Source of the DNA: an uncultured bacterium
GTDB lineage: Bacteria > Margulisbacteria > WOR-1 > JAKLHX01
Length of the DNA: 64,000 nt
Reading direction: 5' to 3'
Assembly: GCA_964597815.1 (NCBI GenBank)
Contig: CAZQZN010000001.1
Span: forward strand, 151,965-215,964
The translations under genes and the position numbers were made by a program. Of this stretch, positions 776-48,199 are shown piece by piece. Below the pieces are notes generated by a model. It was not told the origin of the DNA and did no database searches. It was given only the letters and a program-made list of their open reading frames with translations. Numbering within the stretch: the first letter of the stretch is position 1; each line of letters begins with the position of its first letter.

Positions 776-1465
776 ATGAGAAAAGTTTTCGTGTTTATTC
801 TTATTTCTGCTCTTGCATTTTGTTCTTTTGGGGATTTATATGCTGCCCCAAAAAAAACAAAAAATAGGAAGATTGTAAAACCGGCACCGAAAAAATTGGA
901 ACCGCAAAGAAATTTCCCATTTTTGCCAAAAACTTTTGTCCCTATGCCAGCACCTGTTAGAGTTGCTCCACCTCCAAAACCAGTAGTTGTACCTGTCAAA
1001 CAAAAACCTGCCTTTGCTGATCTTGGGTTAAAGACAGGATTAAATGCAGGAGTTTTTGCTGTTGGCGTGGATTTTGATTATCCAATGCCAAATTTATCGC
1101 GTGGATTTGCTGCAAGAATAAGCGCTGGATATTTAAGTGGCAATAATCCAAACTCAAGCGCTTCAATTGACAACCCCATGAAAGCTGGGGTTATAAAGTT
1201 TGGCGCAATCTATAACTTGGTTGGTAATAGAATTTTTTCTTTGCCATTAAACTGGTATTTTGGAGCTTCTTACTTGTTGCCAGTGGCTGTTAATAATTCA
1301 AGAAGTGGTGGCTGGGGAATTGAAGCAATAATTGGTGCAAAGTTTAATGGGAATGTTCCTGGCAAATTATATATTGAAACAGGATATAGTGGCTTAAAAT
1401 ATTCTCTTGATACACCTGCGTTAAAAGGGATAAATGCTACAATTGGTTATTGCTATACTTTCTAA
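776..1465 (+). CDS. Secreted or outer-membrane protein: signal peptide, Pro-rich linker, beta-rich C-terminal domain ending in an aromatic residue (YTF)
   Basis: AGGAG RBS 6 nt upstream of the ATG at 776. N-terminus MRKVFVFILISALAFCSFG is a signal peptide. The PxP-rich linker is PMPAPVRVAPPPKPVVVPVKQKP. The C-terminal F is typical of OMP barrels. The ORF track's earlier start at 746 lacks an RBS. Confidence 0.6.
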   Translation: MRKVFVFILISALAFCSFGDLYAAPKKTKNRKIVKPAPKKLEPQRNFPFLPKTFVPMPAPVRVAPPPKPVVVPVKQKPAFADLGLKTGLNAGVFAVGVDFDYPMPNLSRGFAARISAGYLSGNNPNSSASIDNPMKAGVIKFGAIYNLVGNRIFSLPLNWYFGASYLLPVAVNNSRSGGWGIEAIIGAKFNGNVPGKLYIETGYSGLKYSLDTPALKGINATIGYCYTF

Positions 1466-1498
1466 CATCGGCGCAAAACTTTTGATTGTTTAATTCCC

Positions 1499-2707
1499 TT
1501 GCAATTTACTTGGCTTTTTTTTGCCTTGTTATTATATAATTATGTTATAGTGAAAAGCAAGGTTTTAGCATTATTTTTCTTATTCATCATATCTTACTCT
1601 TTTTTATTTTCCAATTCTGTGTTGGCTCAGGAAGCACAAGATGAATTAATGAAAAAAAAAGAAGAACTAAACAAAATTTATGAAGAATTGGAACGGAACA
1701 AAAACAGGCTTGAAAAGACAAAAAGAGAGCAAAAAAATGTAATACAACAATTATACATAATTACAAAAAATTTGAAAAAGACTGAACTTCAGCTAAGTTT
1801 GGCTGAGCAAAAAAGACAAGAAAACGAACGAAAGTTAAATCTTCTAAAATCCTCCCTTGATGAAACGAAAAAGAAATTTCTAATGCGAAGCGATCTTTTA
1901 AAATCCAGAGTAAAAGAAGCTTATAAATCTGGTGGAGTGAACTATCTTCAATTATTTTTATCTTCTGATTCTATCGGAAATTTCATAAATAAGACATATT
2001 TTTTTGAAAAAATTCTTGGAAGAGACATTCGTTTGGCGGATGAAATTTCCAAAGAGCATGAGAAGATTGCGCAAAAAAAGAATCAGGTGGAAAACACAAC
2101 CAATGAAATCATAAAACTTTCTTCATATATTCAATACAAAAAGAAAACTATTGAACAGCAGGCACAGGAAAAGAAGAAAATAAATGAACTTTTGGAAGCA
2201 AAAAGGATTGATTATGAAAGAAAGGTTGAGGAGCTTGAAAGAATATCGAAAGAAATTGAAAAACACATACAAAAACTTGCCGCTGAAAGAGCTGCAAAAG
2301 GCATAGTTATCAAAGGTGGTACAGGTAAATTTATTTGGCCTCTACAAGGGAGAATAACATCAAGATATGGATATAGGAGAAGCCCTTTTTCGGCCAGAAG
2401 GCAGTTTCATACTGGAGTTGATATCGCTAATTCTTACGGGTCACCAATTAAAGCTGCTGATGGGGGACAAGTTATTTTTGCCGGTTGGTGGGGTGGGTAT
2501 GGTAAAGCGGTAATTATTGACCACGGGAAGGGATTTTCAACTGTGTATGGCCACATGTCAAGAATTTATGTTCAACAGGATGAACAAGTAAGTCAAGGCC
2601 AAGTGATTGGTCTTGTTGGAAGTACTGGTTATTCCACAGGGCCACATTTGCACTTTGAAGTTAGAAAAAATGGAGAAACTCAGGATCCTTTGAAATGGTT
2701 GATGTAA
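1499..2707 (+). CDS. M23 family metallopeptidase with a long N-terminal coiled-coil (EnvC-like murein hydrolase/activator)
   Basis: C-terminal HTGVDIA...DHGKGFSTVYGHMS...GPHLHFEV shows the HxxxD and HxH zinc motifs intact. The N-terminal roughly 250 aa are K/E-rich heptad coiled coil. A signal-like hydrophobic stretch follows a possible GTG start at 1550. Confidence 0.85.
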   Translation: MQFTWLFFALLLYNYVIVKSKVLALFFLFIISYSFLFSNSVLAQEAQDELMKKKEELNKIYEELERNKNRLEKTKREQKNVIQQLYIITKNLKKTELQLSLAEQKRQENERKLNLLKSSLDETKKKFLMRSDLLKSRVKEAYKSGGVNYLQLFLSSDSIGNFINKTYFFEKILGRDIRLADEISKEHEKIAQKKNQVENTTNEIIKLSSYIQYKKKTIEQQAQEKKKINELLEAKRIDYERKVEELERISKEIEKHIQKLAAERAAKGIVIKGGTGKFIWPLQGRITSRYGYRRSPFSARRQFHTGVDIANSYGSPIKAADGGQVIFAGWWGGYGKAVIIDHGKGFSTVYGHMSRIYVQQDEQVSQGQVIGLVGSTGYSTGPHLHFEVRKNGETQDPLKWLM

Positions 2708-2723
2708 AATAAAATATATTGAA

Positions 2724-3938
2724 ATGAGGGGAAAAATGAAAAAATATATTCCAAATCTTGCTTGGGTCTTTTTGCTTTTATTTATTTGTGTGGTTGGATA
2801 TCAATCTGTTTCTGCAATAACTGGGTTAAAAGAAAAATTGCAGGTATTTATGCAGGTTTTGGAATATGTAAAAAATGACTATGTAGAAAAAAATGTTGAT
2901 GACCAAAAATTGGTTTATGGCGCGATAAAAGGAATGCTAGATTCGCTTGACGATCCATACACAAGGTTTATGGAGCCAAAACCGTTTAAAGAAATGCAGA
3001 TGAGGATGAAGGGTTCTTATTCTGGAATCGGCATTTATATTGGAATGAAAAACAAAGTATTAACAGTAATAGCTCCAATTCCAGATACTCCGGCGGCAAA
3101 AGCGGGATTAAAATCCGGAGATAAAATTATAACTATTGATGACAAACCGACAAAGGATATGGGATTGGAAGAAGCGGTTAGTATGATAAGAGGCAAAAAA
3201 GGAACAGTTGTAAAGTTAGGGATAATTAAACGCGGAGAAAACGAAAAGAGAGATTTTTCAATTATAAGGGATACAATTGTTGTAAAAAGTGTTGAATACA
3301 AGACTATTGACAAAAACATTGGTTATATTAAATTAATTACTTTTGAAAACTTAAATTCTGCAAATGAAATGAGGAAGGCTATCAAAGCTTTAAAAAATTT
3401 AGGGTGTAAAGCTTTAATTATTGATGTCAGGAACAATGGAGGAGGACTTTTGTCAAATGCCACTGAAATAGCCAGTATGTTTCTTAAAAGCGGAGAGCCA
3501 ATAGTATATACTGTTGATAGAGAAGGCAGAAAAGAAGTTATTGAGTCAAGCGGAGAAAATATCTGGCAGGGACCAATAGTTATGCTGATAAATGAAGGCA
3601 GTGCAAGTGCTTCGGAAATTTTGGCTGGTGCTCTCAGGGACAACAATTATGCCACTCTTGTGGGATATCATACTTTTGGTAAAGCTTCAGTTCAAAGCGT
3701 AAGGCAATTATATGATGGCTCTGCTTTGTTGTTGACTGTTGCAAAATATTTGACGCCTGATGGAAGAGATATTTCTAAAACAGGTATTAATCCAGATATT
3801 GAAGTAAAAACTGGAAAAGAAAAAGATAACAAAGGGGCCTCAATCAATGATAAAGAGGATGAGATTGTTTTTCCTGATGAGGATGCAAAAGATATTCAGC
3901 TTGAGAAAGCAAAAGAATATATAAAGACAAAGATATAA
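2724..3938 (+). CDS. ctpA: Carboxyl-terminal processing protease (S41, CtpA/Prc-like) with PDZ domain
   Basis: Signal peptide, PDZ-like GIGIYIGMKNKVLTVIAPIPDTPAAKAGLKSGDKIITID, and S41 catalytic region LINEGSASASEILAGAL. An alternative ATG lies at 2736. Confidence 0.88.
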   Translation: MRGKMKKYIPNLAWVFLLLFICVVGYQSVSAITGLKEKLQVFMQVLEYVKNDYVEKNVDDQKLVYGAIKGMLDSLDDPYTRFMEPKPFKEMQMRMKGSYSGIGIYIGMKNKVLTVIAPIPDTPAAKAGLKSGDKIITIDDKPTKDMGLEEAVSMIRGKKGTVVKLGIIKRGENEKRDFSIIRDTIVVKSVEYKTIDKNIGYIKLITFENLNSANEMRKAIKALKNLGCKALIIDVRNNGGGLLSNATEIASMFLKSGEPIVYTVDREGRKEVIESSGENIWQGPIVMLINEGSASASEILAGALRDNNYATLVGYHTFGKASVQSVRQLYDGSALLLTVAKYLTPDGRDISKTGINPDIEVKTGKEKDNKGASINDKEDEIVFPDEDAKDIQLEKAKEYIKTKI

Positions 3939-4999
3939 TGTTTGACAGATTAGATAATATCAATTCATACAAAGAGATTGATCCAAACGGAATGGCTGAT
4001 TTAATTTCCAAATTTCCGGAAATGATGGTTGATGCTTCAAAAATTTCCAGTGATGTTTTATTTGATTTTTTGGACAAACCAAAAAACATAGTTTTTTGTG
4101 GAATGGGTGGATCAGCTATAAGCGCTGATATTGCCTCTGTTATTTTGTCAAAATTTGGAGATATTCCTTCTTCTGTTGTAAGGGGTTATAACTTACCACA
4201 TTTTGTAAATACTGATTCTTTGGTAATAATACTTAGTTATTCTGGAAACACTGAAGAAACTCTTTCATGCTATTATCAAGCATTAAATAGAACAAAAAAT
4301 ATTGTTGTTATTTCTTCTGGCGGCAAGGTTTTAGATCTGGCGATTGCAAACAAAAATGTTTTATTTAAAATTCCAAAAGGATTGCCTCCAAGAGCGTCAA
4401 TGCCTTATTTATTGATACCAATAATTTTTGTTATTAACAAGTTCTTCATTGAAGCAAAATTACTTGATCAAGTAAATGAGGCATATAAAACGCTTGTGGA
4501 GTTGAAAGAGAAAATAGGAGTTAATATTCCTTTAAAAGACAACCTTGCAAAACAAATTTCCTCAAAAATTGCGGATAAGATTATCTATATTTTTGGCTCT
4601 GAAGGCGGAAGCGATGTGGCGGCATATAGATTTAAATGCCAATTAAGTGAAAACAGCAAAAAAAATTCTTTCAACAATTCTTTCCCAGAGCTAAATCACA
4701 ATGAAATTGTAAATCTTTCTTTTTACAATCAACAAAATATAACAGCAATTCTTTTAAGAGATTCTAATGAAAGCAAACAAATGCAAAATAGGATTGAAGC
4801 GACGAAAAAAATACTTTCGAAAAGCAAGATAGAAATTGCTGAAATTTATTCAGCAGGGCAATCTTTGCTTTCAAAAATTTTATCACTTTGTTATTTTGGT
4901 GATTATGTTAGTTTGTATTTGTCGATTTTATCTGGCATTGATCCGATGCCAGTTAAACCAATCGATGAGCTCAAAGAAGAGTTAGAGAAAAGAAAATGA
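3938..4999 (+). CDS. Bifunctional phosphoglucose/phosphomannose isomerase (SIS-domain PGI/PMI family)
   Basis: SIS motif CGMGGSAISADIAS and a second SIS-like half. It overlaps the ctpA stop by 1 nt. Confidence 0.75.
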   Translation: MFDRLDNINSYKEIDPNGMADLISKFPEMMVDASKISSDVLFDFLDKPKNIVFCGMGGSAISADIASVILSKFGDIPSSVVRGYNLPHFVNTDSLVIILSYSGNTEETLSCYYQALNRTKNIVVISSGGKVLDLAIANKNVLFKIPKGLPPRASMPYLLIPIIFVINKFFIEAKLLDQVNEAYKTLVELKEKIGVNIPLKDNLAKQISSKIADKIIYIFGSEGGSDVAAYRFKCQLSENSKKNSFNNSFPELNHNEIVNLSFYNQQNITAILLRDSNESKQMQNRIEATKKILSKSKIEIAEIYSAGQSLLSKILSLCYFGDYVSLYLSILSGIDPMPVKPIDELKEELEKRK

Positions 5000-6054
5000 A
5001 AGCTGTATTAATCGCTGGTGGTTTTGGTACTAGATTAAGGCCTTTGACATATAACAGGCCAAAACCAATAGTCCCAGTTGTGAATAGGCCATTTGTTTTG
5101 CATCAGATAGAACTGCTAAAGAAATATGGAATCTATGAAATCATTCTAAATGTTCATTATTTGCCGAAAAGTATGGAGCTTGTTCTTGGAGACGGCAAGG
5201 AATGGGGTGTTAAACTCTATTATTCAATAGAAAAAGAACCGCTTGGCACAGCTGGGGCGGTCAAAAACGCTGAAAAATATTTTGATGAAGAGCCGTTAGT
5301 AGTTTTTAACGGAGATATTTTGACAAATATTGATATTAAAGATTTGATTGAATTCCATAAAAAGTCAAAATCTGTAGCAACTATCGCTTTAACAGAGGTT
5401 GATGACCCAACGCATTATGGACTTGTTATTACTGATAAAGATGGAAAAGTTAAAAAGTTTTTAGAAAAGCCAAGTTGGCAGGAAGTAACCACAAACAAAA
5501 TAAACGCTGGGGTTTATATTTTGGAACCGCGCATATTTAGTTATGTCCCTAAAAACGCTTTTTTTTCTTTTGAAAGAGATCTTTTCCCATTGCTTTTAGA
5601 AAAAAATGAAAATATGTATGCCAAAGTTTCAAGCTCTTATTGGCTTGATATTGGCAGTCCCAAAAAATATTTGCAAGCGCACAAAGATATTTTAAATCAG
5701 GAGATTAAAGTAAATATCGAAGGGGAAAACAAAGGCGACCAAATTTGGATCCACCCATCAGCTCAGATAAACGAGAGCGCAAAGTTAAAAGGGCCGTTAG
5801 TAATTGGCAAAAACGCAAAAGTTGAAAAAGCCAGCATAAAAAATTTTTCTGTAATTGGAGAAAAAGTTTCTATTGATGACGGAGTGATAATTGAAGATAC
5901 AGTTATTTTACGAAACTCAAAAATTGGAAAGGATGTTAAGTTAAAAAACTGTATAATAGGCGAAAATTGCATAATTGAAGATTTTGTTGGGATGTTATAT
6001 GGAATTGTTTTAGCTGATTATTCAATTGTAAAAAAAGGTTCAAGGCTTATATGA
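4996..6054 (+). CDS. Mannose-1-phosphate guanylyltransferase / NDP-sugar pyrophosphorylase with C-terminal left-handed beta-helix
   Basis: N-terminus MKAVLIAGGFGTRLRPLTYNRPKPIVPV is the nucleotidyltransferase G-loop. C-terminal hexapeptide repeats are present. Confidence 0.85.
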   Translation: MKAVLIAGGFGTRLRPLTYNRPKPIVPVVNRPFVLHQIELLKKYGIYEIILNVHYLPKSMELVLGDGKEWGVKLYYSIEKEPLGTAGAVKNAEKYFDEEPLVVFNGDILTNIDIKDLIEFHKKSKSVATIALTEVDDPTHYGLVITDKDGKVKKFLEKPSWQEVTTNKINAGVYILEPRIFSYVPKNAFFSFERDLFPLLLEKNENMYAKVSSSYWLDIGSPKKYLQAHKDILNQEIKVNIEGENKGDQIWIHPSAQINESAKLKGPLVIGKNAKVEKASIKNFSVIGEKVSIDDGVIIEDTVILRNSKIGKDVKLKNCIIGENCIIEDFVGMLYGIVLADYSIVKKGSRLI

Positions 6055-17127: not shown

Positions 17128-18183
17128 ATGAAAAAAATATTTTTTTCAGTGATAATTTTAATGTGTTTTGCTGTTTTTCTTTCATCGTGTGCCGGAAATT
17201 TCGGACAACAAGATGAAAAAGAGATTAATAAAAAAGATGAGCTAGAGGAAAACATTGTTGCAACACCCAAAATTGAAACATCTCAAACTTCTGAAGCTAT
17301 AAAAGTTTTTGGCTATCCTCAAAACACGGATGAAATCAATAATCAAGAGCAATATCGCCAAATTTTTGAGAATTTTACTGTAAAAAATATAGATGCGAGG
17401 AAAGCCTGTGAAATTTTTGCAAAAATTTTCCCTGAAGCAAGTTTTACTGAAGGGGCAAGGAGCAATCAAATAATAGTGAAAGCTATGCCGGTTGATATTG
17501 TCAGGATAAGAAAATTGTTTTCTTCAATTGATGTTCCTGTTCATCAGGTTATTATTGAAAGCCAGATTTTAGAATTGACGAAAAGCGATTTTGAAAACTT
17601 TGGATTTAGTTGGAATATTTCAAGAAATGGGATGAAAATGGCAGTAGAAAATTCGGCTATTCAATCAGACAAGATATATGCAACAATAAATGCGTTAAAA
17701 AGCAACGGGAAGGCGCGGTTGATCGCAAATCCAAGCATTGCGACAATTGATAATCAGGAAGCAAGTGTAAACATTGGCAGTAAAATTCCTTTTGCCGTTC
17801 CAGTAAATTCAACTTCCCAAGGAATGCAATGGACTATACAATATATTGACGCTGGGGTTTCATTAAAAATAACTCCAAAATTGGCTGATAATGATTACAT
17901 AATAGTTTCTGTAAATCCAGAAGTCAGCTCTATTTCAGAATGGAGGACAACTGCGGCCGGTGAATTTCCTGTCATATCAACTAGAAACGCCAGCACAAAA
18001 ATAAGAATTAAAAACGGGCAAACAATAGTGATTGCAGGACTGATAAATGAAACAGACAGAAAAAATATGTCAAAAATTCCAATAGCAGGCGATATGCCGA
18101 TTTTAGGGGCATTGTTTTCACAACAAACATTGGAAGAAGGGAATTCCGAGATTGTTTTTCTTATTAGGCCGCGAATAATATGA
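17128..18183 (+). CDS. Short secretin-family outer-membrane lipoprotein (one N domain plus secretin C domain)
   Basis: Lipobox FLSSCAGN. The C-terminal secretin domain reads ...GQTIVIAGLINETDRKNMSKIPIAGDMPILGALFSQQTLEEGNSEIVFLIRPRII. Confidence 0.8.
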   Translation: MKKIFFSVIILMCFAVFLSSCAGNFGQQDEKEINKKDELEENIVATPKIETSQTSEAIKVFGYPQNTDEINNQEQYRQIFENFTVKNIDARKACEIFAKIFPEASFTEGARSNQIIVKAMPVDIVRIRKLFSSIDVPVHQVIIESQILELTKSDFENFGFSWNISRNGMKMAVENSAIQSDKIYATINALKSNGKARLIANPSIATIDNQEASVNIGSKIPFAVPVNSTSQGMQWTIQYIDAGVSLKITPKLADNDYIIVSVNPEVSSISEWRTTAAGEFPVISTRNASTKIRIKNGQTIVIAGLINETDRKNMSKIPIAGDMPILGALFSQQTLEEGNSEIVFLIRPRII

Positions 18184-18212: not shown

Positions 18213-20249
18213 TTGATGCCAAAGAACCAATTACAATCTTCAGAAAAAATAGAAAGAATAAGGATAATACCATTTTTATTGTCCCTATCTTTTTTTGTTA
18301 TTGGTATTGTCTTATTGTGGTTTGGTTTAACTCTATCATCTGATCCTCTTTTTTTCGACTTTGTTAAAACTTATTTGAAAGATCTTCGTCCAACTCCAGC
18401 CATGCTTGAACAAATAGATTACAAAATTTTCGCTATTGCAGACATTTTCAAAAAGGCAGGATTATTTCTGTCGATTATTTCTTTCATTTTGGCTTATTTA
18501 ATTTTGAAGGGATTTGTGCCTTTTGGAAAAATTAAGATTTTTTTGGAAAAAATTTATGTTAATTTCGGAGGAAAAGCAGGGATTAGAAAAATAAGTTTTA
18601 TTATTGGTGCGTCAACAATATTCCTTTGTGGGTATATTCTAATTTTATTTTCAATGGGCCTCAAATTTTTTGGCATAACAATGACAAGATATCATTTTCC
18701 TTTGGCACTGGGTTTAACAATAGTTTCTATGCTTATGCTCTCAAAGTTTTTTTTCAATCGTGAATATATCAAGATGTTTGTTGTTTCAATGGCTGTTTTT
18801 GTTTTTATGTTTTTAATTTCGTTTTTATTTGGGAATTTGTTTTATGATACAGCTTTTGATAGTTTAGCATATCATCAGGAAATCATAATCAGATTAACGC
18901 AAGGCTGGGATTTATATTCATTAAATAATCCTTTGCACACAAAGGATTTTATTAACAGCCATACTTATACTCAAACTAAAGCGGCTGAAATTTGTTCTGC
19001 TTCTCTTGTAAAGTTTGACGGGCTTATAGAATCTGGCAAAATCTTCAATTTTCTCATGATTTTTTCTTCGTTTTTCATTGCTTTTTATGCGGCAACTGTT
19101 TTTCCGTGGATAAGTATTAGAGTTGCAACATTGATTTCCGCTTTGTTGGCTTTTAACCCAGTGTCAGTCTATCAGAGCGCAAGTTATTATATTGATGGAC
19201 AGTTATCGTCAATATTGCTTTGCTTATTTTCGTTGGCAGTAATCCTTCTGACGGAGAAAAAATTTCTTTATGTATTTTTCATTTTTCTATCAATCATTAT
19301 TGCTTCCAATCTTAAACTTACTGGTCTTGTGTATTCTTTTGTTGTTGCTTCAATTTTGGCTGTTTTGCTGTTTTTCAGAGAAGATTTTAAGATGTTTTTT
19401 GCTTCTTCTTTAATGTTTCTTTCAGCCGCACTAATTGCCATTTTTTTAGTTGGTTTTAATCCATATGTTACAAATCATATTTATCATGGCCATATTTTTT
19501 ATCCATTTTTTTGTAAGAATCCTGTGCAAGTTATAGAACATGCGCCTCCAAGCATGAAAGGCAAAAATCAAATAGAAAAAGCATTTGCATCAATTTTTTC
19601 TGAGTGTGAAAATTTTTATGTAGGTCATTTAACTGAATATTCTTTCAAATTTCCTCTTTTTGTTTCTGCACATGAGCTAACCTGTTTTGCTAATACTGAC
19701 ACAAGGGCTTCCGGATTTGGTCCATTATTTGCCGCAATGTTTATTGTTTCGTTGTTAGTTATTTTTTCAATCATTTTTATTGATTGGAAAACAGGAGCGA
19801 TAATTTCCCTTTTCTTTTTATGGATACTGGCAAGTGGTTTTATTATAACTGAGCCTTGGTGGGCAAGATTTGTGCCTCAAATTTATTTTGCTCCAATATC
19901 CACAATTTTGGTATCTTATAAATTTAACTCGAAAGTTTTAAAATTTTTAAGGAATTTTTTGTTATTTTTGGCAATAGCAAATATACTGTTAATCTCAATG
20001 GTTTATTACACATCTCAATACGCAACTTCGGCTTCACTTGAAAGGCAATTAAAAGAAACTGCAAATTCTTATAAAAAAATATATATTTATTTCCCTTATG
20101 GAACATTTGCTTCTCTTTATAGATTAAAAAGTGCCGGGATAGATGCAGTGCCTGTTGACGCAAATTATTTTAAAGAAGCGCCGCAAAAAATCTCTGCTGA
20201 CTTTTTTTCCGGATTTTTTATTGGTGAAAAGAAAGAAAACCAAAAGTGA
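18213..20249 (+). CDS. Large polytopic membrane protein (>=12 predicted TM helices); candidate GT-C-fold glycosyltransferase of a Gtr/Arn-like system
   Basis: 678 aa and strongly hydrophobic throughout, with a periplasmic-loop D-rich segment after TM1. It is 30 nt from the secretin and overlaps the downstream GT2 by 4 nt. The GT-C assignment is inferred from context. Confidence 0.5.
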   Translation: MMPKNQLQSSEKIERIRIIPFLLSLSFFVIGIVLLWFGLTLSSDPLFFDFVKTYLKDLRPTPAMLEQIDYKIFAIADIFKKAGLFLSIISFILAYLILKGFVPFGKIKIFLEKIYVNFGGKAGIRKISFIIGASTIFLCGYILILFSMGLKFFGITMTRYHFPLALGLTIVSMLMLSKFFFNREYIKMFVVSMAVFVFMFLISFLFGNLFYDTAFDSLAYHQEIIIRLTQGWDLYSLNNPLHTKDFINSHTYTQTKAAEICSASLVKFDGLIESGKIFNFLMIFSSFFIAFYAATVFPWISIRVATLISALLAFNPVSVYQSASYYIDGQLSSILLCLFSLAVILLTEKKFLYVFFIFLSIIIASNLKLTGLVYSFVVASILAVLLFFREDFKMFFASSLMFLSAALIAIFLVGFNPYVTNHIYHGHIFYPFFCKNPVQVIEHAPPSMKGKNQIEKAFASIFSECENFYVGHLTEYSFKFPLFVSAHELTCFANTDTRASGFGPLFAAMFIVSLLVIFSIIFIDWKTGAIISLFFLWILASGFIITEPWWARFVPQIYFAPISTILVSYKFNSKVLKFLRNFLLFLAIANILLISMVYYTSQYATSASLERQLKETANSYKKIYIYFPYGTFASLYRLKSAGIDAVPVDANYFKEAPQKISADFFSGFFIGEKKENQK

Positions 20250-21349
20250 AGCTGTCAATAGTATTGCCTGTTTATAATGAAGCCAAAACAATTTTAGAAG
20301 TTTTGAAAGCAGTTCAAGATGCTCCAGTTTTTGGATTAGAAAAAGAAATAATCATTATTGATGATTGTTCAAGTGATTCAACTCCTGATATATTAAAAAA
20401 GTTTGTTTCAAATGATGTAAAAATTGTCAGACATGAAAAGAATCAAGGCAAGGGAGCTGCTCTAAAAACCGGCTTTGACATTGCAACTGGTGATATTATC
20501 CTTATTCAGGATGCTGATTTAGAGTACGACCCAAAAGAATATGAGAACCTTTTAAAGCCTATTCTTGAAGACAAATTTGATGTTGTTTATGGTTCACGAT
20601 TTTTAGAGTATAACGAGAATATAAAAAAATATTCACCGCACACATTGGCAAATAAGTTTCTTACTTTTCTTTCAAACCTTTTTTCTGGTCTTAAACTTAC
20701 TGATATGGAAACATGCTATAAAGTTTTTAAAGCCGGCATAATAAAAGATATTTACATAGAGGAGAAAAGATTTGGCTTTGAGCCGGAAATTACTGCAAAG
20801 ATTGCTTCAAAAATCAGAAAAGAAAATTTAAGAATTGCAGAGGTTCCTATATCATATAAGCCCCGCTCTTACAAACATGGCAAGAAAATAGGCATTAAAG
20901 ATGGCATAAGGGCAATATGGTGCATTGTTAAATACAACGATTCATTTTTTATTACCTTTTTAAGATATGCTTTTAGCGGGCTTTCAGCATCATTTCTGCA
21001 ATTTTTTTCAATGGTTTTTTTAGTTGAGTTTCTTTCTTTCAAAACGGTTTTTTTGCAAAACTTGGCGAATATACTCAGCATATTGATAAGTATGGTTTAT
21101 GTATTCTTGATGCATTCCTTTTTTTCATGGAGGTATAAGTTTAGCTCTTTGATGATTTTTTTCAAGAAAATGTTTGTTTTTTTTGTTTTTTCGGGCATAT
21201 TGCTTATTTTCAGGATTTTGTTGTTTTATCTTTTGTCTGTGATGGGTATGGACTACAAATTAAATACTTTGATAAACATAGTCTTTGTCGTTATAGTAAA
21301 TTTTATCTTTTACAATCTTGTTTTGTTCAAAGAGACAAAAACCACTTAA
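20246..21349 (+). CDS. GT2 polyprenol-phosphate glycosyltransferase (DPM1/ArnC/GtrB-like) fused to a C-terminal GtrA-like 4-TM domain
   Basis: LSIVLPVYNEA...IIIIDDCSSDST...DADLEYDP forms the GT-A DxD set. The C-terminal 130 aa carry a GtrA-like helix pattern. Confidence 0.85.
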   Translation: MKLSIVLPVYNEAKTILEVLKAVQDAPVFGLEKEIIIIDDCSSDSTPDILKKFVSNDVKIVRHEKNQGKGAALKTGFDIATGDIILIQDADLEYDPKEYENLLKPILEDKFDVVYGSRFLEYNENIKKYSPHTLANKFLTFLSNLFSGLKLTDMETCYKVFKAGIIKDIYIEEKRFGFEPEITAKIASKIRKENLRIAEVPISYKPRSYKHGKKIGIKDGIRAIWCIVKYNDSFFITFLRYAFSGLSASFLQFFSMVFLVEFLSFKTVFLQNLANILSILISMVYVFLMHSFFSWRYKFSSLMIFFKKMFVFFVFSGILLIFRILLFYLLSVMGMDYKLNTLINIVFVVIVNFIFYNLVLFKETKTT

Positions 21350-22268
21350 TAGTCAATTCTAGTCCTGTTTGAAGATCTATTTTTGGTTCCCAACCCAATA
21401 AATTTTTTGCTTTCGAAATATCTGGCCTTCTTTGTTTTGGATCATCCTCGGGCAAAGGACTAAATTTTATGTTGGAAAGTGGTTTGTTAAAATTTTTGTT
21501 GACCATTTCAGCTAATTCTTTGATAGTAAATTCGTTTGGATTGCCAAGATTAATAGGGCCGGTTTCATTGCTCTCCAGCATTTTAATGGTACCGTCAATC
21601 AGGTCATCAATATAACAAAAACTTCTTGTTTGAGATCCGTCTCCATATATTGTTAAAGGCATATCTTTCAACGCCTGAGAGATAAAGTTTGGAATGACTC
21701 TCCCGTCGTTTTTGCGCATCCTTGGACCATAAGTATTAAATATCCTTGCGATTTTTATGTCTAAATTGAATTTCCTTTTATAAGAAAAAATCAAAGCTTC
21801 TGAAAATCTTTTGCTCTCGTCATATACACTTCTTGGCCCAATAGGATTTACATTACCCCAGTAACCTTCATTTTGGGGGCTTACTTTTGGATCTCCGTAA
21901 ACTTCAGAAGTAGAAGCGAAAAAATATTTTGCATTGCAGGCTTTTGCAAGTTCAAGAGTATTTAGTGTTCCAATTGAACCTACTTTCATTGTCTCGACAG
22001 GAAAGTTTAGGTAATCAACTGGGCTTGCAGGGGAGGCCAAGTTTATTACGAAATCCAAGTTTTTTTCCATGATTTTTTCCACAAAATCGCTTTTGCATAT
22101 ATCAACTTGAATAAATTCAAAATTATCATTTTTTAAAGCTGTTTGGATATTTGTCTTAGAGCCAGTTAAAAGGTTGTCAGCACAAATTACTCTATTTCCA
22201 CTTTTTAATAAACGATCACAGAGATGAGATCCAATAAAGCCGGCTCCGCCGGCGACAAGAAATTTCAT
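21327..22268 (-). CDS. UDP-glucuronate decarboxylase (UDP-xylose synthase / ArnA-C-terminal-like SDR)
   Basis: VAGGAGFIGSHLCDRLL Rossmann motif, YxxxK region and UXS-typical DGRVIPNFI. Confidence 0.85.
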   Translation of the reverse strand: MKFLVAGGAGFIGSHLCDRLLKSGNRVICADNLLTGSKTNIQTALKNDNFEFIQVDICKSDFVEKIMEKNLDFVINLASPASPVDYLNFPVETMKVGSIGTLNTLELAKACNAKYFFASTSEVYGDPKVSPQNEGYWGNVNPIGPRSVYDESKRFSEALIFSYKRKFNLDIKIARIFNTYGPRMRKNDGRVIPNFISQALKDMPLTIYGDGSQTRSFCYIDDLIDGTIKMLESNETGPINLGNPNEFTIKELAEMVNKNFNKPLSNIKFSPLPEDDPKQRRPDISKAKNLLGWEPKIDLQTGLELTIKWFLSL

Positions 22269-23566
22269 CTTCCAACTCCAAAGTATTTAAATCCTTGCTC
22301 TTTCATTAATTTTGGATTTAACATGTTTCTAGCGTCAAATACATAAAGTTTCTTCAAGCTCTTTTTTAATAGTTCCACTTCAATTTGTTTAAATATAGGC
22401 CAATCTGTTACAAAAATTGCCGCATCAGATCCTTTTGCCGCTGAATAGATGTCTTTTTCAATAACAAGATTTTTAATTGATGGTATTTCTTTTACAACAG
22501 GGTCATAAGCGTGTACAGAAAAACCTTTTTTTGTCAACTTTGATATTAATTTTATTGAGGGCGATTCTCGAATATCATCTGTGCCGGGCTTAAATGAAAG
22601 GCCAAACACGGCAACTTTTTTATTTTTTGGGCTTTTTAAAACTTTCAAAATTTTGTTTAGAATCAGGTCAACTTGCTGTTCGTTAATTTTGTTTAATGTT
22701 TCCAAAAGGCAAGGTTTGTATCCCATCTTTTTTGATAAACTCACAATTGCGGAAACATCTTTTGGCAGACAAGAACCACCATAACCTATTCCGGCGTTTA
22801 GAAAATATCGCCCAATTCTTTTATCCAATCCAACCGCATTTGCGAGCTTTACGACATCAACTCCGACTCTTTCGCAGATGTTTGCGATTTCATTAATGAA
22901 AGATATTTTTGTTGCTAAAAAAGAGTTGGAAACATATTTTATCATTTCTGCTGTTTTAATATCAGTAAAAATTATGTGTGCGTTTAGGCTTCTGTATAAT
23001 TCTGTAATTGTGTCAAATGCTTTTGTGTCTATTGCCCCAATAACAATTCTATCCGGATTCATAAAATCGTTTATTGCATTGCCCTCACTTAAAAATTCCG
23101 GATTTGATACAACTGAAAAATTTTTTTGTGGGATATTGTGTTTTCTTAATATTTTATGGACGATGTCTCCCATTCCAACAGGAACAGTGCTTTTATTTAC
23201 AATCACTTTGTAGAAATTTTTGGTTTTTATGCTTTTTAGAGAATTTGCTATGTTTTTTGCGACTTTAATTACATTTGATATATCCGCAGAGCCATCATTT
23301 TTTGGTGGAGTGGCAACAGCTATAAAAATTACATCGGATTGTTTGACAGCATCGTCTAAATTTGTGCTAAAGAAAAGCCTTTTGTTTTTGCTATTAAATT
23401 TGACAAGTTCTTCAAGCCCCGGTTCAAAAAAAGGCACAATGCCATTTTTTAAGCTTTCTAATTTTTTGTAATCTTTATCGATACAAAAAACCTGATTGCC
23501 CAAATTTGCCAAACAGGCTCCGGTTACCAGCCCCACATATCCAGAACCAATAATACAAACCTTCAT
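22265..23566 (-). CDS. ugd: UDP-glucose 6-dehydrogenase
   Basis: MKVCIIGSGYVGLVTGACLA at the N-terminus, catalytic GGSCLPKD, and family-typical length. Confidence 0.9.
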   Translation of the reverse strand: MKVCIIGSGYVGLVTGACLANLGNQVFCIDKDYKKLESLKNGIVPFFEPGLEELVKFNSKNKRLFFSTNLDDAVKQSDVIFIAVATPPKNDGSADISNVIKVAKNIANSLKSIKTKNFYKVIVNKSTVPVGMGDIVHKILRKHNIPQKNFSVVSNPEFLSEGNAINDFMNPDRIVIGAIDTKAFDTITELYRSLNAHIIFTDIKTAEMIKYVSNSFLATKISFINEIANICERVGVDVVKLANAVGLDKRIGRYFLNAGIGYGGSCLPKDVSAIVSLSKKMGYKPCLLETLNKINEQQVDLILNKILKVLKSPKNKKVAVFGLSFKPGTDDIRESPSIKLISKLTKKGFSVHAYDPVVKEIPSIKNLVIEKDIYSAAKGSDAAIFVTDWPIFKQIEVELLKKSLKKLYVFDARNMLNPKLMKEQGFKYFGVGR

Positions 23567-23634: not shown

Positions 23635-24150
23635 ATGAAGTGTCCAAAATGTTTGTCTAGCATACCAGAGTGGAATAAGGCTTGCAAATGCGGATATAAA
23701 TTGGATTTTTCAAAAGTTCCTTCTCCTCCAAGGCAGATAGGTTTAATAAACGATTACGAGGCGATAATTGGTGAACAGCTTGGCAAAATGATAAATCTGG
23801 TAAATGATATTGAGAAAAAAACCGGCATAGAAATTGTAGTCGCTATACTAAACAATACCAAGCCGCTACTTCCTGAAAATTATGCTTTTTATCTATTTAA
23901 TAAATGGAATCTTGGTAAAAAAGACCATAGAGCGATTTTAATCTTGGTTGCAATGTATGAAAGGCGAGTTGAAACTGAAATTGGATTTGGGTTGGAAAAA
24001 TACATTACTGAGGATGAGACAGAAAAATTGTTGGATGAAATAATAATCCCTTATTTTAAGCAAAGCAAATATGGGGAAGGTCTTTACGAGGCTTTGAAAG
24101 CTTTGGCTAAAAAATTGGAAAATTTGGATCTGCCGCCACTGAAAAAATAA
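23635..24150 (+). CDS. TPM-domain (TLP18.3/Psb32/MOLO-1 phosphatase-like) protein with N-terminal zinc ribbon
   Basis: CPKC...CKCG zinc ribbon; TPM core KKDHRAILILVAMYERRVETEIGFGLEKYITEDE. Confidence 0.7.
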   Translation: MKCPKCLSSIPEWNKACKCGYKLDFSKVPSPPRQIGLINDYEAIIGEQLGKMINLVNDIEKKTGIEIVVAILNNTKPLLPENYAFYLFNKWNLGKKDHRAILILVAMYERRVETEIGFGLEKYITEDETEKLLDEIIIPYFKQSKYGEGLYEALKALAKKLENLDLPPLKK

Positions 24151-43371: not shown

Positions 43372-44602
43372 AGTAGTTGTTACAGGAGTTGGCGCTGTAA
43401 CTCCTATTGGTATAGGAAAAGAAAACTTTTGGAATGCATTAAAATCAGGGAAAAATGGAGTTGGCAAAATTTCTTATTTTGATCCTTCGCCTTTTGATAC
43501 CCAAATTGCTGCTGAAGTAAAAGATTTTGATCCTTCAATATATTTGGACAAAAAAGAGGCAAGAAGACTCGTTAATTTTATTGTTTTTGCAATTGCCGCT
43601 TCGAAGATGGCGTTAGATGATTCTGGTTTAGAAATAAATGAAAGCAATGCGCCGAATGTCGGTGTTTTAATTGGTTCTGGGATAGGAGGCCTAAAATTTC
43701 TTGAAGAACAGTCAAAAATTTTGTGTGAAAAAGGCCCTTCAAGGTGTTCCCCATTTATGGTGCCTCTTATGATAAATGATATGGCAGCTGGAATGGTGTC
43801 AATAAAAACAGGGGCAAAGGGCCCAAATAGCTGCACGACAACCGCATGTGCTTCCGGCACTAATTCAATTGGAGATGCTTATGAAATAATAAAGAGGGGA
43901 GCAGCCGATGTTATGATAACCGGTGGCACAGAAGCTGCTATTACACCTCTTGGCATTGCTGGATTTTGTGCCGCACAAGCACTTTCAAGAAGAAATGATT
44001 CGCCTGAGAAAGCGTCGCGTCCATTTGATGCTCAAAGAGATGGCTTTGTGATGGGAGAGGGAGCAGGGATTGTAATTTTAGAAGAGTTAGAACATGCAAA
44101 AAAACGCGGGGCACAAATTTATGCTGAAGTTGTAGGATATGGGATGAGCGGTGATGCATTTCACATGACTGCGCCTCACGAAACTGGAGACGGGGCAATA
44201 AGGGCTATGAAAGCCGCGATTAAAAATGCTGGCATTTCTCCCGAAAAAATTGATTATATTAACGCTCATGGCACATCGACTCAATTAAACGACAAGCTGG
44301 AAACTCTTGCTATAAAAAAAGTATTTGGAGAATATTCAAAAAAAATTGCAATCAACTCAACAAAATCAATGATTGGTCATCTCTTGGGTGCTGCTGGTGG
44401 TGTTGAATTTGTCGCGATGGTTCTTTCAGTAAAAAATGATTTTATTCACCCTACAATAAATTATGAATATCCCGATCCAGAGTGCGATTTGGATTATGTG
44501 CCAAATGTCGGAAGAGATCAAAAAATCAATTATGCTATGAGCAATTCTTTTGGATTTGGCGGACATAATGCTGTCATAATTTGCAAAAAATTCAACGCCT
44601 AA
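43358..44602 (+). CDS. fabF: 3-oxoacyl-ACP synthase II
   Basis: Active-site Cys (TTACASG) and the characteristic INAHGTST and KSMIGHLLGAAG His motifs. Confidence 0.9.
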   Translation: MLERRVVVTGVGAVTPIGIGKENFWNALKSGKNGVGKISYFDPSPFDTQIAAEVKDFDPSIYLDKKEARRLVNFIVFAIAASKMALDDSGLEINESNAPNVGVLIGSGIGGLKFLEEQSKILCEKGPSRCSPFMVPLMINDMAAGMVSIKTGAKGPNSCTTTACASGTNSIGDAYEIIKRGAADVMITGGTEAAITPLGIAGFCAAQALSRRNDSPEKASRPFDAQRDGFVMGEGAGIVILEELEHAKKRGAQIYAEVVGYGMSGDAFHMTAPHETGDGAIRAMKAAIKNAGISPEKIDYINAHGTSTQLNDKLETLAIKKVFGEYSKKIAINSTKSMIGHLLGAAGGVEFVAMVLSVKNDFIHPTINYEYPDPECDLDYVPNVGRDQKINYAMSNSFGFGGHNAVIICKKFNA

Positions 44603-46638
44603 TTCTGAGCATTATTTTTAAAAACCAAACTAAAAGTAGTCCCTTTTTCAATTTCGCTTTCAACAGATATTGCTGCGTTGTGTTCATTGGCAAATCTAAA
44701 AGCTATAGCGAGTCCTAATCCTGTGCCATGTTCTTTTGTTGTAAAAAACGGATCAAATATTTTCCCCAGCATTTCTTTTGATATTCCTTTTCCGGTGTCA
44801 GAAATTTTAATTATAACTTCTTCATCTTTTTTTTCAGAGTGTAATGACAATATTCCTCCATTTGGCATTGCGTCAATAGCGTTTATAAACAAGTTTAATA
44901 GAACCTGCTTCATTCTGTTTTTGTCAGCCAATACAATATGATCCTCGCTTGTTTGATTTGTTATGATAATATTTTTTCCTTTTGCCAAATCGCGCACAAG
45001 AATTATTGTTTCTTCTGAAAGTTCTTTTGGGTTGATTTTCTCTATTACAGGAGTGGATTGTTTTGAATAGTCTTGAATACCTTGTAAAATGAGTTTTATT
45101 CTTCTTATTTCATTTTGGAGCAATACTGAATAATTGTCCAAAAATTCTTTATTATCAATTTGATGTGGGAGAAGTTGCGAAAAAATTGAGACAAAAGTCA
45201 AGGCATTTTTTACTTCATGCGCAATGCCAGCTATAACAACACCCAAACTTGCCAATTTTTCAAGTTTTAATGATTTTTCAAGAGATTTAATTTTTTGTTT
45301 ATATCTAATGGCGTTATCAATTCCGGCAGCGGTTTGATTTGCCAAGGTTTCAAAAAGCTGAATTTCTTCATCTGAAAATGGTGTCATATCTTTTTTGCAG
45401 TCAGAAGCGAGAAATCCCAAGAGTTTTTGTTCTTCACCACCAAAACAAGGAACAAGCAAAGTTATGTCCTTGTCAAAAATATCTATTTCCTCTTTGACGA
45501 TTGATGATTTTGTTTTTATTAATTCTTTAATAGTACTGTTTTCTTGAGAAATAAATGTGCCTTTAAGCTTTGTCAAAGAACCTTTTGCACTTGTGCAAAT
45601 ATATGCTGAGCATTCCTCATCTATGATAAAGGTTGCAACACCGTTCAATTTCAGAGTTATTGACGATGTATTGGTAATAAATTTTGAAAATTCTTCAATT
45701 GTTCTGAGTTTTTTGATTTTGTGCGAAAATTTTACTGCAATTTTTTCTGCCAAGAGCTTTGTTTTGAAAAATGTTTTATCAATAAATGAAATAGAAAAGT
45801 TCATAAGCGGGTAATATGCTATTGAAGCGATAATCAGAAATGGAAGAGTGCCCCAAAAAGAATTTAGATTTATAAACGGCAAAGATATATTGCTTGTAAT
45901 AAACATTATTGAGAAAAATATGACAGTAAACAAAACTGTTGAAACAGAATATAAAACACTTTTCCTGATGAGCATTTCAATGTTCATAAGCCTGTATCTT
46001 GTTATGGCATATGTTGTGAATGAGACAAATATTACTGTTGCAGAAGGACCAATAAAATTCAGTTTTGAAGTGCCTAATAGAGGAAGAATCAAATTGGTTA
46101 TTATGCCAATTAATGTTGAAATAACCATGCCAAAGAACATATATGATAATTTTGCTTTAATTAATGGTGTTGAAATTTTATATTTTTTGTATAGGATAAA
46201 GAATCCCACGATCACAAATGAAACGAAATATATTGCAAAAATGCTGTTGCCAATCCCATAGGCAACTTCTCTGTCAAAGCTGTTCACAGATTTTACAATG
46301 ATATCGGTTGGAATCATCGGTAAAAACAAAAGCCATGGTGAAAATATCGCTAATATATGCCATATTCCAAATGGTTTTTCTTTTTCAGAAAATAAAAATG
46401 AAAAATATAAAAAAGAGGATGGGATTAAGATTGGTCCGAGGAACATTAATCTTGCCCAAAACAAAGGATAGTTTGTCTGCCAAAACATAAATGTAGCAAA
46501 ATTCCAAATTGCGACTCCAATAATAATTGTAAATAAGGACAAATTTAAATGTCTTTTTGGCCCGTTTTTTAAAACAACAAAAGCCAAAAATAAATTTAGC
46601 AAAAATGCTGAAAATAGTATTAATGTTTTGAACATCAT
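44599..46638 (-). CDS. Sensor histidine kinase HK1, with N-terminal 7TM receptor-type membrane domain (HisKA_7TM-like), middle GAF/PAS-like region, DHp and HATPase
   Basis: Seven hydrophobic helices in the first ~300 aa. H-box IAHEVKNALTFV (His codon at 45218-45220). N/G1/G2 boxes LFINAIDAM, DTGKGI, GTGLGLAI. No receiver domain. Confidence 0.85.
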   Translation of the reverse strand: MMFKTLILFSAFLLNLFLAFVVLKNGPKRHLNLSLFTIIIGVAIWNFATFMFWQTNYPLFWARLMFLGPILIPSSFLYFSFLFSEKEKPFGIWHILAIFSPWLLFLPMIPTDIIVKSVNSFDREVAYGIGNSIFAIYFVSFVIVGFFILYKKYKISTPLIKAKLSYMFFGMVISTLIGIITNLILPLLGTSKLNFIGPSATVIFVSFTTYAITRYRLMNIEMLIRKSVLYSVSTVLFTVIFFSIMFITSNISLPFINLNSFWGTLPFLIIASIAYYPLMNFSISFIDKTFFKTKLLAEKIAVKFSHKIKKLRTIEEFSKFITNTSSITLKLNGVATFIIDEECSAYICTSAKGSLTKLKGTFISQENSTIKELIKTKSSIVKEEIDIFDKDITLLVPCFGGEEQKLLGFLASDCKKDMTPFSDEEIQLFETLANQTAAGIDNAIRYKQKIKSLEKSLKLEKLASLGVVIAGIAHEVKNALTFVSIFSQLLPHQIDNKEFLDNYSVLLQNEIRRIKLILQGIQDYSKQSTPVIEKINPKELSEETIILVRDLAKGKNIIITNQTSEDHIVLADKNRMKQVLLNLFINAIDAMPNGGILSLHSEKKDEEVIIKISDTGKGISKEMLGKIFDPFFTTKEHGTGLGLAIAFRFANEHNAAISVESEIEKGTTFSLVFKNNAQN

Positions 46639-48010: not shown

Positions 48011-48020
48011 TTATTAATAA

Positions 48021-48040
48021 ATATCCAATATTTTGGATAT
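48021..48040. promoter_or_regulatory. Perfect 8-bp inverted repeat ATATCCAA-TATT-TTGGATAT in the divergent control region between the two operons (candidate operator)
   Basis: Read directly from the sequence. It lies just upstream of the minus-strand MT gene and 160 nt upstream of the plus-strand reductase gene. Confidence 0.3.
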
Positions 48041-48146
48041 TTTGTCAATTGTAGAACTAAAAGGCTTATTCAGCTAGTTGTTTCTTGCGGGTTAAGGAAG
48101 TAAATAGAAAAGCTGATACTAATTACAATTGGATTGATCCATTTTT

Positions 48147-48175: not shown

Positions 48176-48199
48176 AGAATAAACAAAAAGGAATAGTTT

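Follow-up and report, generated by a model that had tools for sequence, protein, structure and literature searches.

A predicted lipid-carrier glycosylation cassette linked to UDP-xylose synthesis in an uncultured Margulisbacteria genome

A 64,000-nucleotide stretch of DNA from an uncultured bacterium of the Margulisbacteria (GenBank assembly GCA_964597815.1, contig CAZQZN010000001.1, positions 151,965 to 215,964; hereafter the window) contains a cassette of four genes that may together provide a route for glycosylation outside the cytoplasm. The genes encode a polytopic membrane protein with a predicted glycosyltransferase C (GT-C) fold, a family 2 glycosyltransferase (GT2) fused to a GtrA-like domain, a UDP-glucuronate decarboxylase of the UDP-xylose synthase (UXS) type, and a UDP-glucose 6-dehydrogenase (UGDH). 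The reading put forward here, on which the evidence is about evenly balanced, is that the four genes form a lipid-carrier extracytoplasmic glycosylation system of the Gtr/Arn/dolichyl-phosphate mannose synthase (DPMS) type, fed by UDP-xylose.

18213..20249, + strand: polytopic membrane protein, predicted GT-C-fold glycosyltransferase, 677/678 residues (no Pfam or NCBIfam model; fold match)
20246..21349, + strand: GT2 catalytic domain followed by a GtrA/DPMS-type transmembrane (TM) domain, 367 residues (Pfam PF00535 and PF04138)
21327..22268, - strand: UDP-glucuronate decarboxylase (UDP-xylose synthase, UXS type), a short-chain dehydrogenase/reductase (SDR), 313 residues (match to human UXS1)
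22265..23566, - strand: UGDH, 433 residues (all three UDPG_MGDP_dh Pfam domains)

Proposed pathway

The proposed route comprises four steps. UGDH would oxidize UDP-glucose to UDP-glucuronate, and UXS would decarboxylate this to UDP-xylose (both enzymes identified by sequence). The GT2-GtrA enzyme, assigned to its class by sequence and fold, would then move the sugar from its UDP donor to polyprenyl phosphate at the cytoplasmic face, recurrent linkage to UXS genes pointing to xylose as the sugar. The lipid-linked sugar would be flipped to the outer face, perhaps aided by the fused GtrA-like domain, and the 678-residue protein, whose GT-C fold is seen in a structure model, would pass it to an acceptor outside the cytoplasm. 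A lipid-carrier model of periplasmic glycosylation had been proposed for these genes from the DNA letters alone (the original prediction), and it is supported in silico, with xylose as the sugar, the flipping and the acceptor as its conjectural parts.

The open reading frames (ORFs) of the window, which has a low GC content of 0.34, include all four genes where the original prediction had placed them. ORFs and Pfam together bear out the four-gene layout, the convergence of the two gene pairs, the overlap of the GT-C and GT2 genes, and the GtrA-like fusion. The 678-codon ORF at 18213-20249 opens at TTG; since an identical public protein (P0001) is 677 residues long, the true start is probably the ATG at 18216. 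The GT2 ORF opens at GTG and shares 4 nt with the stop codon of the upstream GT-C gene (AAGTGAAG). On the opposite strand UXS and UGDH likewise overlap by 4 nt, and the overlap of UGDH with the start of UXS suggests translational coupling. The GT2 and UXS genes converge, their 3' ends sharing 23 nt. The operon-like overlaps (GT-C/GT2 and UGDH/UXS), which like the enzyme classes are read from sequence or fold, support the grouping of these genes into one system.

Predicted supply of UDP-xylose

The best Protein Data Bank (PDB) matches of the 313-residue SDR are structures of human UXS1 (4gll/2b69), aligned over residues 2-310 with an E-value of 1e-101 and 343 bits; the score against ArnA is 112 bits. 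Pfam places the protein in the SDR epimerase/dehydratase families. The SDR catalytic Tyr-x3-Lys and the T-S-E stretch are conserved: ASTSEVYGDP is identical in the window protein and human UXS1, YDESKR aligns with YDEGKR, and GSQTR is kept. The NCBIfam models for ArnA and for U4kpxs (UDP-4-keto-pentose/UDP-xylose synthase) score far below their cut-offs. By these comparisons the decarboxylase is UXS-type (EC 4.1.1.35) rather than ArnA-type, a classification that the original prediction had left to be made, and this favors UDP-xylose over a released 4-keto-pentose. That prediction had named either compound as the donor; the first alternative gains support and the second is disfavored.

The 433-residue UGDH scores 450.6 bits on NCBIfam TIGR03026 (nucleotide-sugar dehydrogenase; cut-off 189.8) and is most like the UDP-glucose dehydrogenases TuaD and AglM, its 503.6 bits on the TuaD-like model falling below the equivalog cut-off of 700. 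As originally predicted, no aminotransferase or formyltransferase was present among the ORFs surveyed within ~10 kb on either side of the cassette. Specifically, the ORFs surveyed around it include no ArnB aminotransferase, ArnA formyltransferase domain, ArnD deformylase or ArnE/F.

A further nucleotide-sugar supply pair lies 12 kb upstream of the cassette, at 3938-6054, where the gene for a bacterial phosphoglucose/phosphomannose isomerase-type SIS protein shares 4 nt with that for a nucleoside diphosphate-sugar pyrophosphorylase whose C-terminus carries hexapeptide repeats.

The GT2-GtrA enzyme

The 367-residue protein consists of a GT2 catalytic domain (residues 1 to ~231; Pfam Glycos_transf_2, E 6e-39) and a four-helix GtrA/DPMS-type TM domain (residues ~234-360; GtrA_DPMS_TM, E 7e-7, 29.9 bits, above the cut-off of 26.1). 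A D89-A-D91 (DAD) motif is invariant among its homologs (alignment A2). The best match in a phmmer search of PDB sequences is Pyrococcus furiosus DPMS (5mlz; residues 1-355, E 1e-20), followed by ArnC and then GtrB, and the 5mlz alignment spans both the catalytic and the four-helix TM domains. An AlphaFold2 (AF2) model of the protein (pLDDT 87) leads to the same enzymes, the top 19 Foldseek matches all being DPMS, ArnC or GtrB (E 6e-18 to 7e-11). The best NCBIfam scores all fall below the respective equivalog cut-offs (AglJ, 109.5 against 325; PgfS, 69.6 against 500; PpgS, 66.3 against 370; ArnC, 65.6 against 529). Sequence and model thus point to an enzyme of the polyprenyl-phosphate glycosyltransferase class, whose sugar is not readable from the NCBIfam models. 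Grouping with GT2s that act on cytoplasmic acceptors, one of the two outcomes named as refuting the original prediction, was not observed by either sequence or fold. The enzyme is proposed to be a polyprenyl-phosphate xylose synthase.

The description of the fused domain as flippase-type in the original prediction reads too much into it, the same four-TM domain being present in P. furiosus DPMS, which matches the window protein over its length. The domain is the module that anchors archaeal DPMS, and any role in flipping would be conjectural. To our knowledge, flippase activity has not been demonstrated for the four-TM domain of the P. furiosus enzyme.

More than 8,000 proteins fall within the very large GT2 clade at E<=1e-30, among them both fused GT2-GtrA forms (~50% identity) and 235-residue forms that comprise the catalytic domain only (~60% identity). 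A small S-adenosylmethionine-dependent methyltransferase gene directly follows GT2 relatives in a Margulisbacteria-type locus (L002, 11167-11748) and in an unrelated metagenome (L092, 5883-6494), and a methyltransferase is fused to GT2-GtrA in proteins of 549-560 residues from Candidatus Electrothrix (P0105, P0110 and P0111 are listed with this observation). This linkage may indicate that the sugar, or a lipid-linked intermediate, is methylated in certain versions of the system. In the window, no methyltransferase gene follows GT2.

The GT-C-fold protein

The 678-residue protein has no Pfam-A match at E<=0.01, no NCBIfam match and no PDB sequence match. Thirty aligned members of its family match no GT-C Pfam family at E<=1, and a profile built from these 30 members finds nothing among PDB sequences at E<=10. 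By a crude hydropathy count there are ~13 TM segments, and ~13-15 hydrophobic helices are counted with the AF2 model (pLDDT 90.2, pTM 0.91). When this model is compared with the PDB by Foldseek, the 12 best matches are all GT-C proteins, namely ALG12, yeast and human STT3, PglB, ArnT (rank 7) and Pmt1/2, with E-values of 3e-3 to 0.2, probabilities of 0.69-1.0 and TM-scores of 0.3-0.5. Lower matches include ALG9, Pmt4, AftB and AftD (E ~1 for the last two), and unrelated transporters appear only at probabilities of 0.15 or less. The model places the protein within the GT-C fold, as a distant member because the Foldseek E-values are weak (3e-3 at best). The original designation as a candidate GT-C protein is therefore upheld by fold, through these 12 matches, and not by sequence; no match to a non-glycosyltransferase membrane family, the other outcome named as refuting the prediction, was found. 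In UniRef, two members of the family bear the name "Glycosyltransferase RgtA/B/C/D-like domain-containing".

Eight residues are invariant in alignment A1: D212, D216, Y220, K276, D328, K368, N421 and R552. The first three belong to the motif FYDxxxDxxxYHQE, which directly follows a helix at residues 185-209 and precedes helices at 215-229, 244-251 and 257-269. In a topology model based on the positive-inside rule, the K/R-rich N-terminus is inside and the acidic 62-residue loop after helix 185-209 is outside. All invariant polar residues fall in loops of the same parity in this model and are predicted to face outward, the position at which a GT-C active site would be expected; D212 and D216 may be equivalent to the catalytic aspartate of such sites, an equivalence that is inferred rather than aligned. 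A lipid-phosphate-linked sugar is the predicted donor, a reading supported by gene context.

The C-terminal domain spans only ~60-80 residues, with no large C-terminal carbohydrate-binding module. At the other end, the first ~120 residues (encoded from 18213 to 18570) add about two TM helices that are found only in the Margulisbacteria clade and are lacking from ~560-residue relatives elsewhere. The loop between the two helices of this N-terminal extension is conserved (RPxPAMLxxxDYK).

Recurrent linkage of UXS to the GT2 clade

Gene neighborhoods of GT2 relatives were compared in 80 metagenome loci and a metagenome-assembled genome (MAG) of the Spirochaetales, with at least 52% identity taken to mark a true UXS ortholog in the metagenome loci. 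In the Spirochaetales MAG (L089), genes for a PMT_2 protein, UXS (56% identity) and GT2-GtrA (51% identity) follow one another on one strand, with UGDH nearby. UXS orthologs stand beside GT2 in the metagenome loci L095, L102, L126, L140, L149, L163 and L165. Locus L095 (2042-11192) combines UXS and UGDH with a GT87-family GT-C gene that overlaps a 235-residue GT2, and with an STT3/AglB gene; it may be an N-glycosylation locus using xylose. A Wzx-like flippase gene is also located there. In L102, one strand carries genes for a polytopic protein, GT2, a separate GtrA, a second polytopic protein, UGDH and UXS. The partners in the UXS-linked GT2 loci are other GT-Cs (PMT_2, GT87) or unclassified polytopic proteins.

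Loci outside the Margulisbacteria were treated as evaluable when they extended at least 4 kb on both sides of GT2 or had a UXS match (n = 23), and the 76 non-Margulisbacteria loci of the GT-C family, 1.4 Mb in total, served as controls. UXS linkage was found in 8 of the 23 evaluable GT2 loci and in none of the 76 controls (Fisher p = 2.9e-6). The GC content of the eight linked loci ranges from 0.36 to 0.72, and they are therefore taken to represent independent lineages. In metagenomes, cassettes built on this logic are not rare.

Gene contexts of the GT-C family

About a dozen homologs of the 678-residue protein are full-length (37-59% identity), one of them named Candidatus Margulisiibacteriota, and many relatives of 540-600 residues are missing the ~120 N-terminal residues. 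Searching 1.84 billion cluster representatives with the family profile recovered 3,979 members at E<=1e-3, of which 2,324 reach E<=1e-30, and a scan of species-representative genomes yielded 383 loci. The family occurs in Bacillota, Desulfobacterota, Bacteroidota, Chloroflexota, Cyanobacteria, Omnitrophota, Verrucomicrobiota, a lineage of the candidate phyla radiation (CPR) and one Methanosarcinales MAG. Because members are found in both monoderms and diderms, and also in a CPR bacterium and an archaeon, lipid A is an unlikely acceptor in general.

The best 80 of the 383 loci were screened by tblastn, and partners were counted within 3 kb of the GT-C gene. The most frequent context combines a UbiA-type protein, a small multidrug resistance (SMR)-type protein and DUF212 (39 loci), followed by no partner (15), UbiA alone (7), SMR only (6), GT2 (6), GT2 with UXS (4) and UbiA with SMR (3). 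The GT2 and UXS context is confined to the four Margulisbacteria-type loci among the 80. Outside that group, the GT-C gene adjoins a UbiA-type phosphoribosyltransferase gene in 49 of the 76 loci, and a lipid-phosphate-sugar synthase gene of either kind (UbiA-type or GT2) in 55 of the 76. The UbiA partner is a decaprenyl-phosphate phosphoribosyltransferase (268 bits on NF008977, cut-off 234; E 9e-42 to PDB 8j8j). The small SMR-like partner has ArnF and ArnE as its best NCBIfam matches, both below the cut-offs, and DUF212 is a family of divergent PAP2 phosphatases. GT-C enzymes that use polyprenyl-phosphate monosaccharide donors, mostly pentoses, would best describe the family as a whole.

Comparable three-component systems have been described by Kelly et al. 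(PNAS 2024; PMC11127046). In these, a polyprenyl-phosphoribose synthase (PPPRS), a flippase of the multidrug and toxic compound extrusion (MATE) or SMR type and a GT-C of CAZy family GT136 add ribofuranose (Ribf), or xylofuranose (Xylf) after epimerization, to periplasmic O antigens (PMC11127046). The pentofuranose system of Citrobacter youngae O1/O2 comprises the PPPRS ORF15, the MATE flippase ORF14 and the GT-C ORF12 (GT136). The GT-C was found to be promiscuous between Ribf and Xylf donors, Gram-positive examples were noted, and most GT-C genes in such loci were annotated as hypothetical (PMC11127046).

Several smaller observations concern the family and its relatives. Two proteins carry the GT-C family domain in fusions (P0186, 1062 residues; P0256, 970 residues), one with an N-terminal Acyl_transf_3 O-acyltransferase and the other with a Glyco_trans_2_3 GT2; these rare fusions fit a role in surface-glycan modification. 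One family locus lies among genes resembling those of an ATP-binding cassette-transporter polysaccharide pathway, judged by size and TM count only, which also fits glycan modification. In Paenibacillus and related genera, the gene directly after GT-C often encodes a conserved ~757-residue protein with an N-terminal signal anchor (L004, 9696-11969; paralogs in L017, L023, L029 and others) and no Pfam or NCBIfam match. A diverged paralog is often encoded on the opposite strand, a few kb upstream. The ~757-residue protein could serve as an acceptor or have an accessory role. In a sequence from human feces named "Bacteriophage sp." (L170, MT837543.1), positions 898-5419 encode a PPPRS (UbiA), a haloacid dehalogenase-type phosphatase, an SMR protein, an SDR epimerase and a 565-residue polytopic DUF6044 protein. 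This grouping suggests that pentofuranose three-component systems have a further GT-C family in DUF6044 (PF19510).

Alternative readings

Several observations weigh against a UDP-xylose-fed cassette. In Margulisbacteria-type genomes the whole neighborhood is syntenic, including the genes for aconitase, RNase III, dihydroorotase, SAICAR synthase and Trk, so the adjacency of UXS and UGDH within this group alone is weak evidence. Among the evaluable GT2 loci outside it, 15 of 23 have no UXS in their flanks, and the UXS-linked GT2s are scattered over a neighbor-joining tree rather than forming a single clade. UXS linkage appears as a family-wide tendency, and sugar specificity is not readable from the phylogeny. 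For the GT-C protein, most relatives adjoin a donor module that draws on phosphoribosyl pyrophosphate (PRPP) and not GT2. None of the Foldseek E-values to GT-C structures is below 1e-3, and hhalign comparisons of the family profile with single sequences of PMT_2, DUF6044 and the two polytopic proteins of L102 were not significant, a weak test given its single-sequence targets. Finally, full-text literature searches returned no description of polyprenyl-phosphate xylose made from UDP-xylose; a paper on Ugd of Cytophaga hutchinsonii mentions xylose in glycoproteins and no lipid-linked xylose.

The same three-component machinery could handle another sugar (glucose, N-acetylglucosamine (GlcNAc), glucuronate, or L-arabinose after epimerization), UGDH and UXS being present by synteny and feeding cytoplasmic glycosyltransferases elsewhere. 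The synteny across Margulisbacteria-type genomes, housekeeping genes included, is compatible with this, as are the 15 loci lacking a nearby UXS and the absence of monophyly among the linked ones; characterized relatives of the GT2 use mannose (DPMS), glucose (GtrB), 4-formamido-4-deoxy-L-arabinose (L-Ara4FN; ArnC) or a hexose (AglJ). Against it, UXS adjacency recurs in eight unrelated lineages, often immediately beside GT2 and on the same strand, and the 1.4 Mb of control loci contain no UXS. No UGDH ortholog was detected in five of the eight linked loci, though three of those contigs are short, and in the window UXS and UGDH end-overlap the GT2 gene. We regard a different sugar as somewhat unlikely, while giving this explanation serious weight.

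It is also conceivable that the GT-C protein of the window draws on a PRPP-derived polyprenyl-phospho-pentofuranose (Ribf, arabinofuranose or Xylf) from a UbiA-type synthase whose gene lies outside the window, and that GT2 serves another GT-C or pathway. The 49 UbiA-linked loci lend this some plausibility, and both such systems and the Ribf/Xylf promiscuity of a GT-C have been demonstrated (Kelly et al. 2024; PMC11127046). No UbiA homolog was detected by tblastn in seven Margulisbacteria-type loci of up to 22 kb each, however, and nothing UbiA-like was seen in the window, where the ORFs were surveyed and only a subset Pfam-scanned. More broadly, the GT136-type partners (UbiA-type PPPRS and SMR), although present in relatives outside the Margulisbacteria, are lacking in the window and in all Margulisbacteria-type loci examined. 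The spacing of the GT-C and GT2 genes, a 4-nt overlap in the window and 14-43 nt apart in other Margulisbacteria genomes, fits co-expression, and at least six family members outside the Margulisbacteria adjoin GT2 rather than UbiA. A PRPP-derived donor for the window protein is considered improbable. Since the family is mostly coupled to a PRPP-dependent UbiA-type synthase, and given the promiscuity between Ribf and Xylf (PMC11127046), the Margulisbacteria clade instead appears to have exchanged one donor module for another and to have kept to the transfer of a pentose.

That the 678-residue protein is not a glycosyltransferase at all, and is a polymerase- or ligase-like enzyme, transporter or scaffold that resembles the GT-C fold, would agree with its missing sequence-level link to curated GT-C families and with the modest Foldseek E-values and TM-scores, and is nevertheless highly improbable given the 12 best structural matches, all GT-C and well above any transporter, the invariant acidic and basic residues that directly follow a TM helix and cluster on one predicted face as in GT-C enzymes, and the consistent coupling of the family to lipid-phosphate-sugar synthases across phyla.

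Comparison with known systems

The proposed UDP-xylose-fed cassette shares features with several known systems and falls outside each specific family tested: the decarboxylase is not ArnA-type, GT2 scores below every equivalog cut-off, and the GT-C protein matches no curated family. As in the Arn pathway, decarboxylation of UDP-glucuronate would feed a GT2 that loads a pentose derivative onto undecaprenyl phosphate, with transfer by a GT-C in the periplasm. ArnC is the second-best relative of GT2 in both sequence and fold, and the fold matches of the GT-C protein include ArnT. In contrast to the Arn pathway, the window decarboxylase is UXS-type, and the surveyed ORFs include no aminotransferase, formyltransferase, deformylase or ArnE/F; GT2 reaches 65.6 of the 529 bits set as the ArnC cut-off, and the 678-residue protein has no sequence match to ArnT/PMT_2.

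GtrA/GtrB/Gtr(type) O-antigen glucosylation and the Gram-positive CsbB/GtcA/YfhO-type systems likewise combine a polyprenyl-phosphate GT2, a small module of the GtrA family and a GT-C. They differ from the window in that GtrA is here fused to GT2, the predicted sugar is xylose and not glucose or GlcNAc, and the GT-C belongs to another family, for which Pfam has no model; GtrB ranks third among the relatives of GT2. The closest match to GT2 is the type III DPMS of P. furiosus (5mlz/5mm1/9ep0; E 1e-20 by sequence and 6e-18 by fold), which has the same architecture. Identity to this enzyme is ~20%, and its donor is GDP-mannose, whereas the genes linked in the window are those for UDP-xylose.

The mycobacterial methylthioxylose capping pair is Rv0539/Rv0541c. 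In mycobacterial decaprenyl-phosphate systems (the UbiA protein Rv3806c with Rv3807c, and the Aft and Emb GT-Cs), GT-Cs also act on polyprenyl-phosphate pentoses, and the UbiA partners of the GT-C family match the Rv3806c structure (8j8j). Here the donors derive from PRPP or methylthioadenosine and not from UDP-xylose, and AftB and AftD are weak fold matches (E ~1) of the window protein. Methylthioxylose capping involves a decaprenyl-phosphate-linked donor and a GT-C (PMC11127046).

In the pentofuranose systems, a GT-C adds a lipid-phosphate-linked pentose outside the cytoplasm, as proposed for the window, and Xylf is already a known lipid-linked donor (PMC11127046). Most relatives of the 678-residue protein carry the donor module of these systems (UbiA-type, SMR-like and phosphatase). 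The donor module of the window is instead GT2-GtrA fed by UGDH and UXS, predicted to deliver xylopyranose and not PRPP-derived Ribf or Xylf, and the window cassette contains no PPPRS, MATE or SMR protein, epimerase or large C-terminal carbohydrate-binding module. The residues named for GT136 ORF12 are D31/E34/Y35, H106 and R349/Y350; compared by description only, the window motif DxxxDxxxYHQE is spaced unlike D31-x2-E34-Y35.

Known extracytoplasmic systems use lipid-linked glucose, GlcNAc, mannose, 4-amino-4-deoxyarabinose (Ara4N), galacturonic acid (GalA), galactosamine (GalN) or PRPP-derived pentofuranoses. Lipid-linked xylose made from UDP-xylose would, if the reading is correct, be a new donor sugar for glycosylation outside the cytoplasm. 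A function would follow both for a large GT-C family lacking models in Pfam and NCBIfam and for the very abundant GT2 clade (more than 8,000 close relatives at the threshold given above). The arrangement would also bear on the envelope of uncultivated Margulisbacteria, and it offers an example, open to testing, of donor-module swapping around one GT-C family. A broader proposal, which we advance tentatively and rate below an even chance, is that of a widespread route from UDP-xylose to polyprenyl-phosphate xylopyranose in bacteria and possibly archaea. In it, members of the GT2 clade (marked by QDADLEY and EEKRFGFEPE motifs, with or without GtrA) would supply various GT-Cs that xylosylate envelope glycans or proteins, and the 678-residue protein would found a pentose GT-C family of ~4,000 clusters that swaps PRPP/UbiA and UDP-xylose/GT2 modules.

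Neighboring genes and other features

Two further genes border the cassette.

17128..18183, + strand: short secretin, 351 residues, with a lipobox-like signal sequence (LSSC) (Pfam Secretin, E 2e-46)
23635..24150, + strand: TPM-domain protein, 171 residues (Pfam TPM_phosphatase, E 6e-27)

The secretin gene ends 30 nt upstream of the GT-C gene and stands alone, the neighboring ORFs including no other type II secretion or type IV pilus genes. It is located directly upstream of GT-C in every Margulisbacteria-type locus examined (L001-L003 and L007-L010), where the surrounding housekeeping genes keep the same synteny; adjacency alone is no proof, and the secretin is treated as a neighbor rather than as a part of the system. 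The upstream secretin, or a pilus, was set aside as a candidate acceptor, the sole evidence being adjacency inside a fully syntenic region. The TPM-domain gene diverges from UGDH and keeps its position in Margulisbacteria-type loci, and is likewise treated as a neighbor. The other genes flanking the cassette are housekeeping genes.

In a scan of 16.8-24.3 kb, terminator-like sites occurred at the level of shuffled sequence (7 versus 5.1) and promoter-like matches moderately above it (45 versus 29.4), none of which marks an operon boundary. Rfam and tRNA scans of the window gave no match.

Elsewhere in the window, positions 57168-63923 of the - strand hold an ORF of 2,251 residues that matches no Pfam family and for which no TM helices are predicted. 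A region of low GC content (~0.30) at 44599-51935 includes genes for two paralogous histidine kinases with seven-TM receptor domains (679 and 705 residues). Between them lie genes for a FeeM-like GNAT protein (N-acyl amino acid synthase family), a methyltransferase and a "male sterility"-type NAD-binding reductase, together with a 143-residue ORF. This region may be a small cluster for a lipid or signal molecule.

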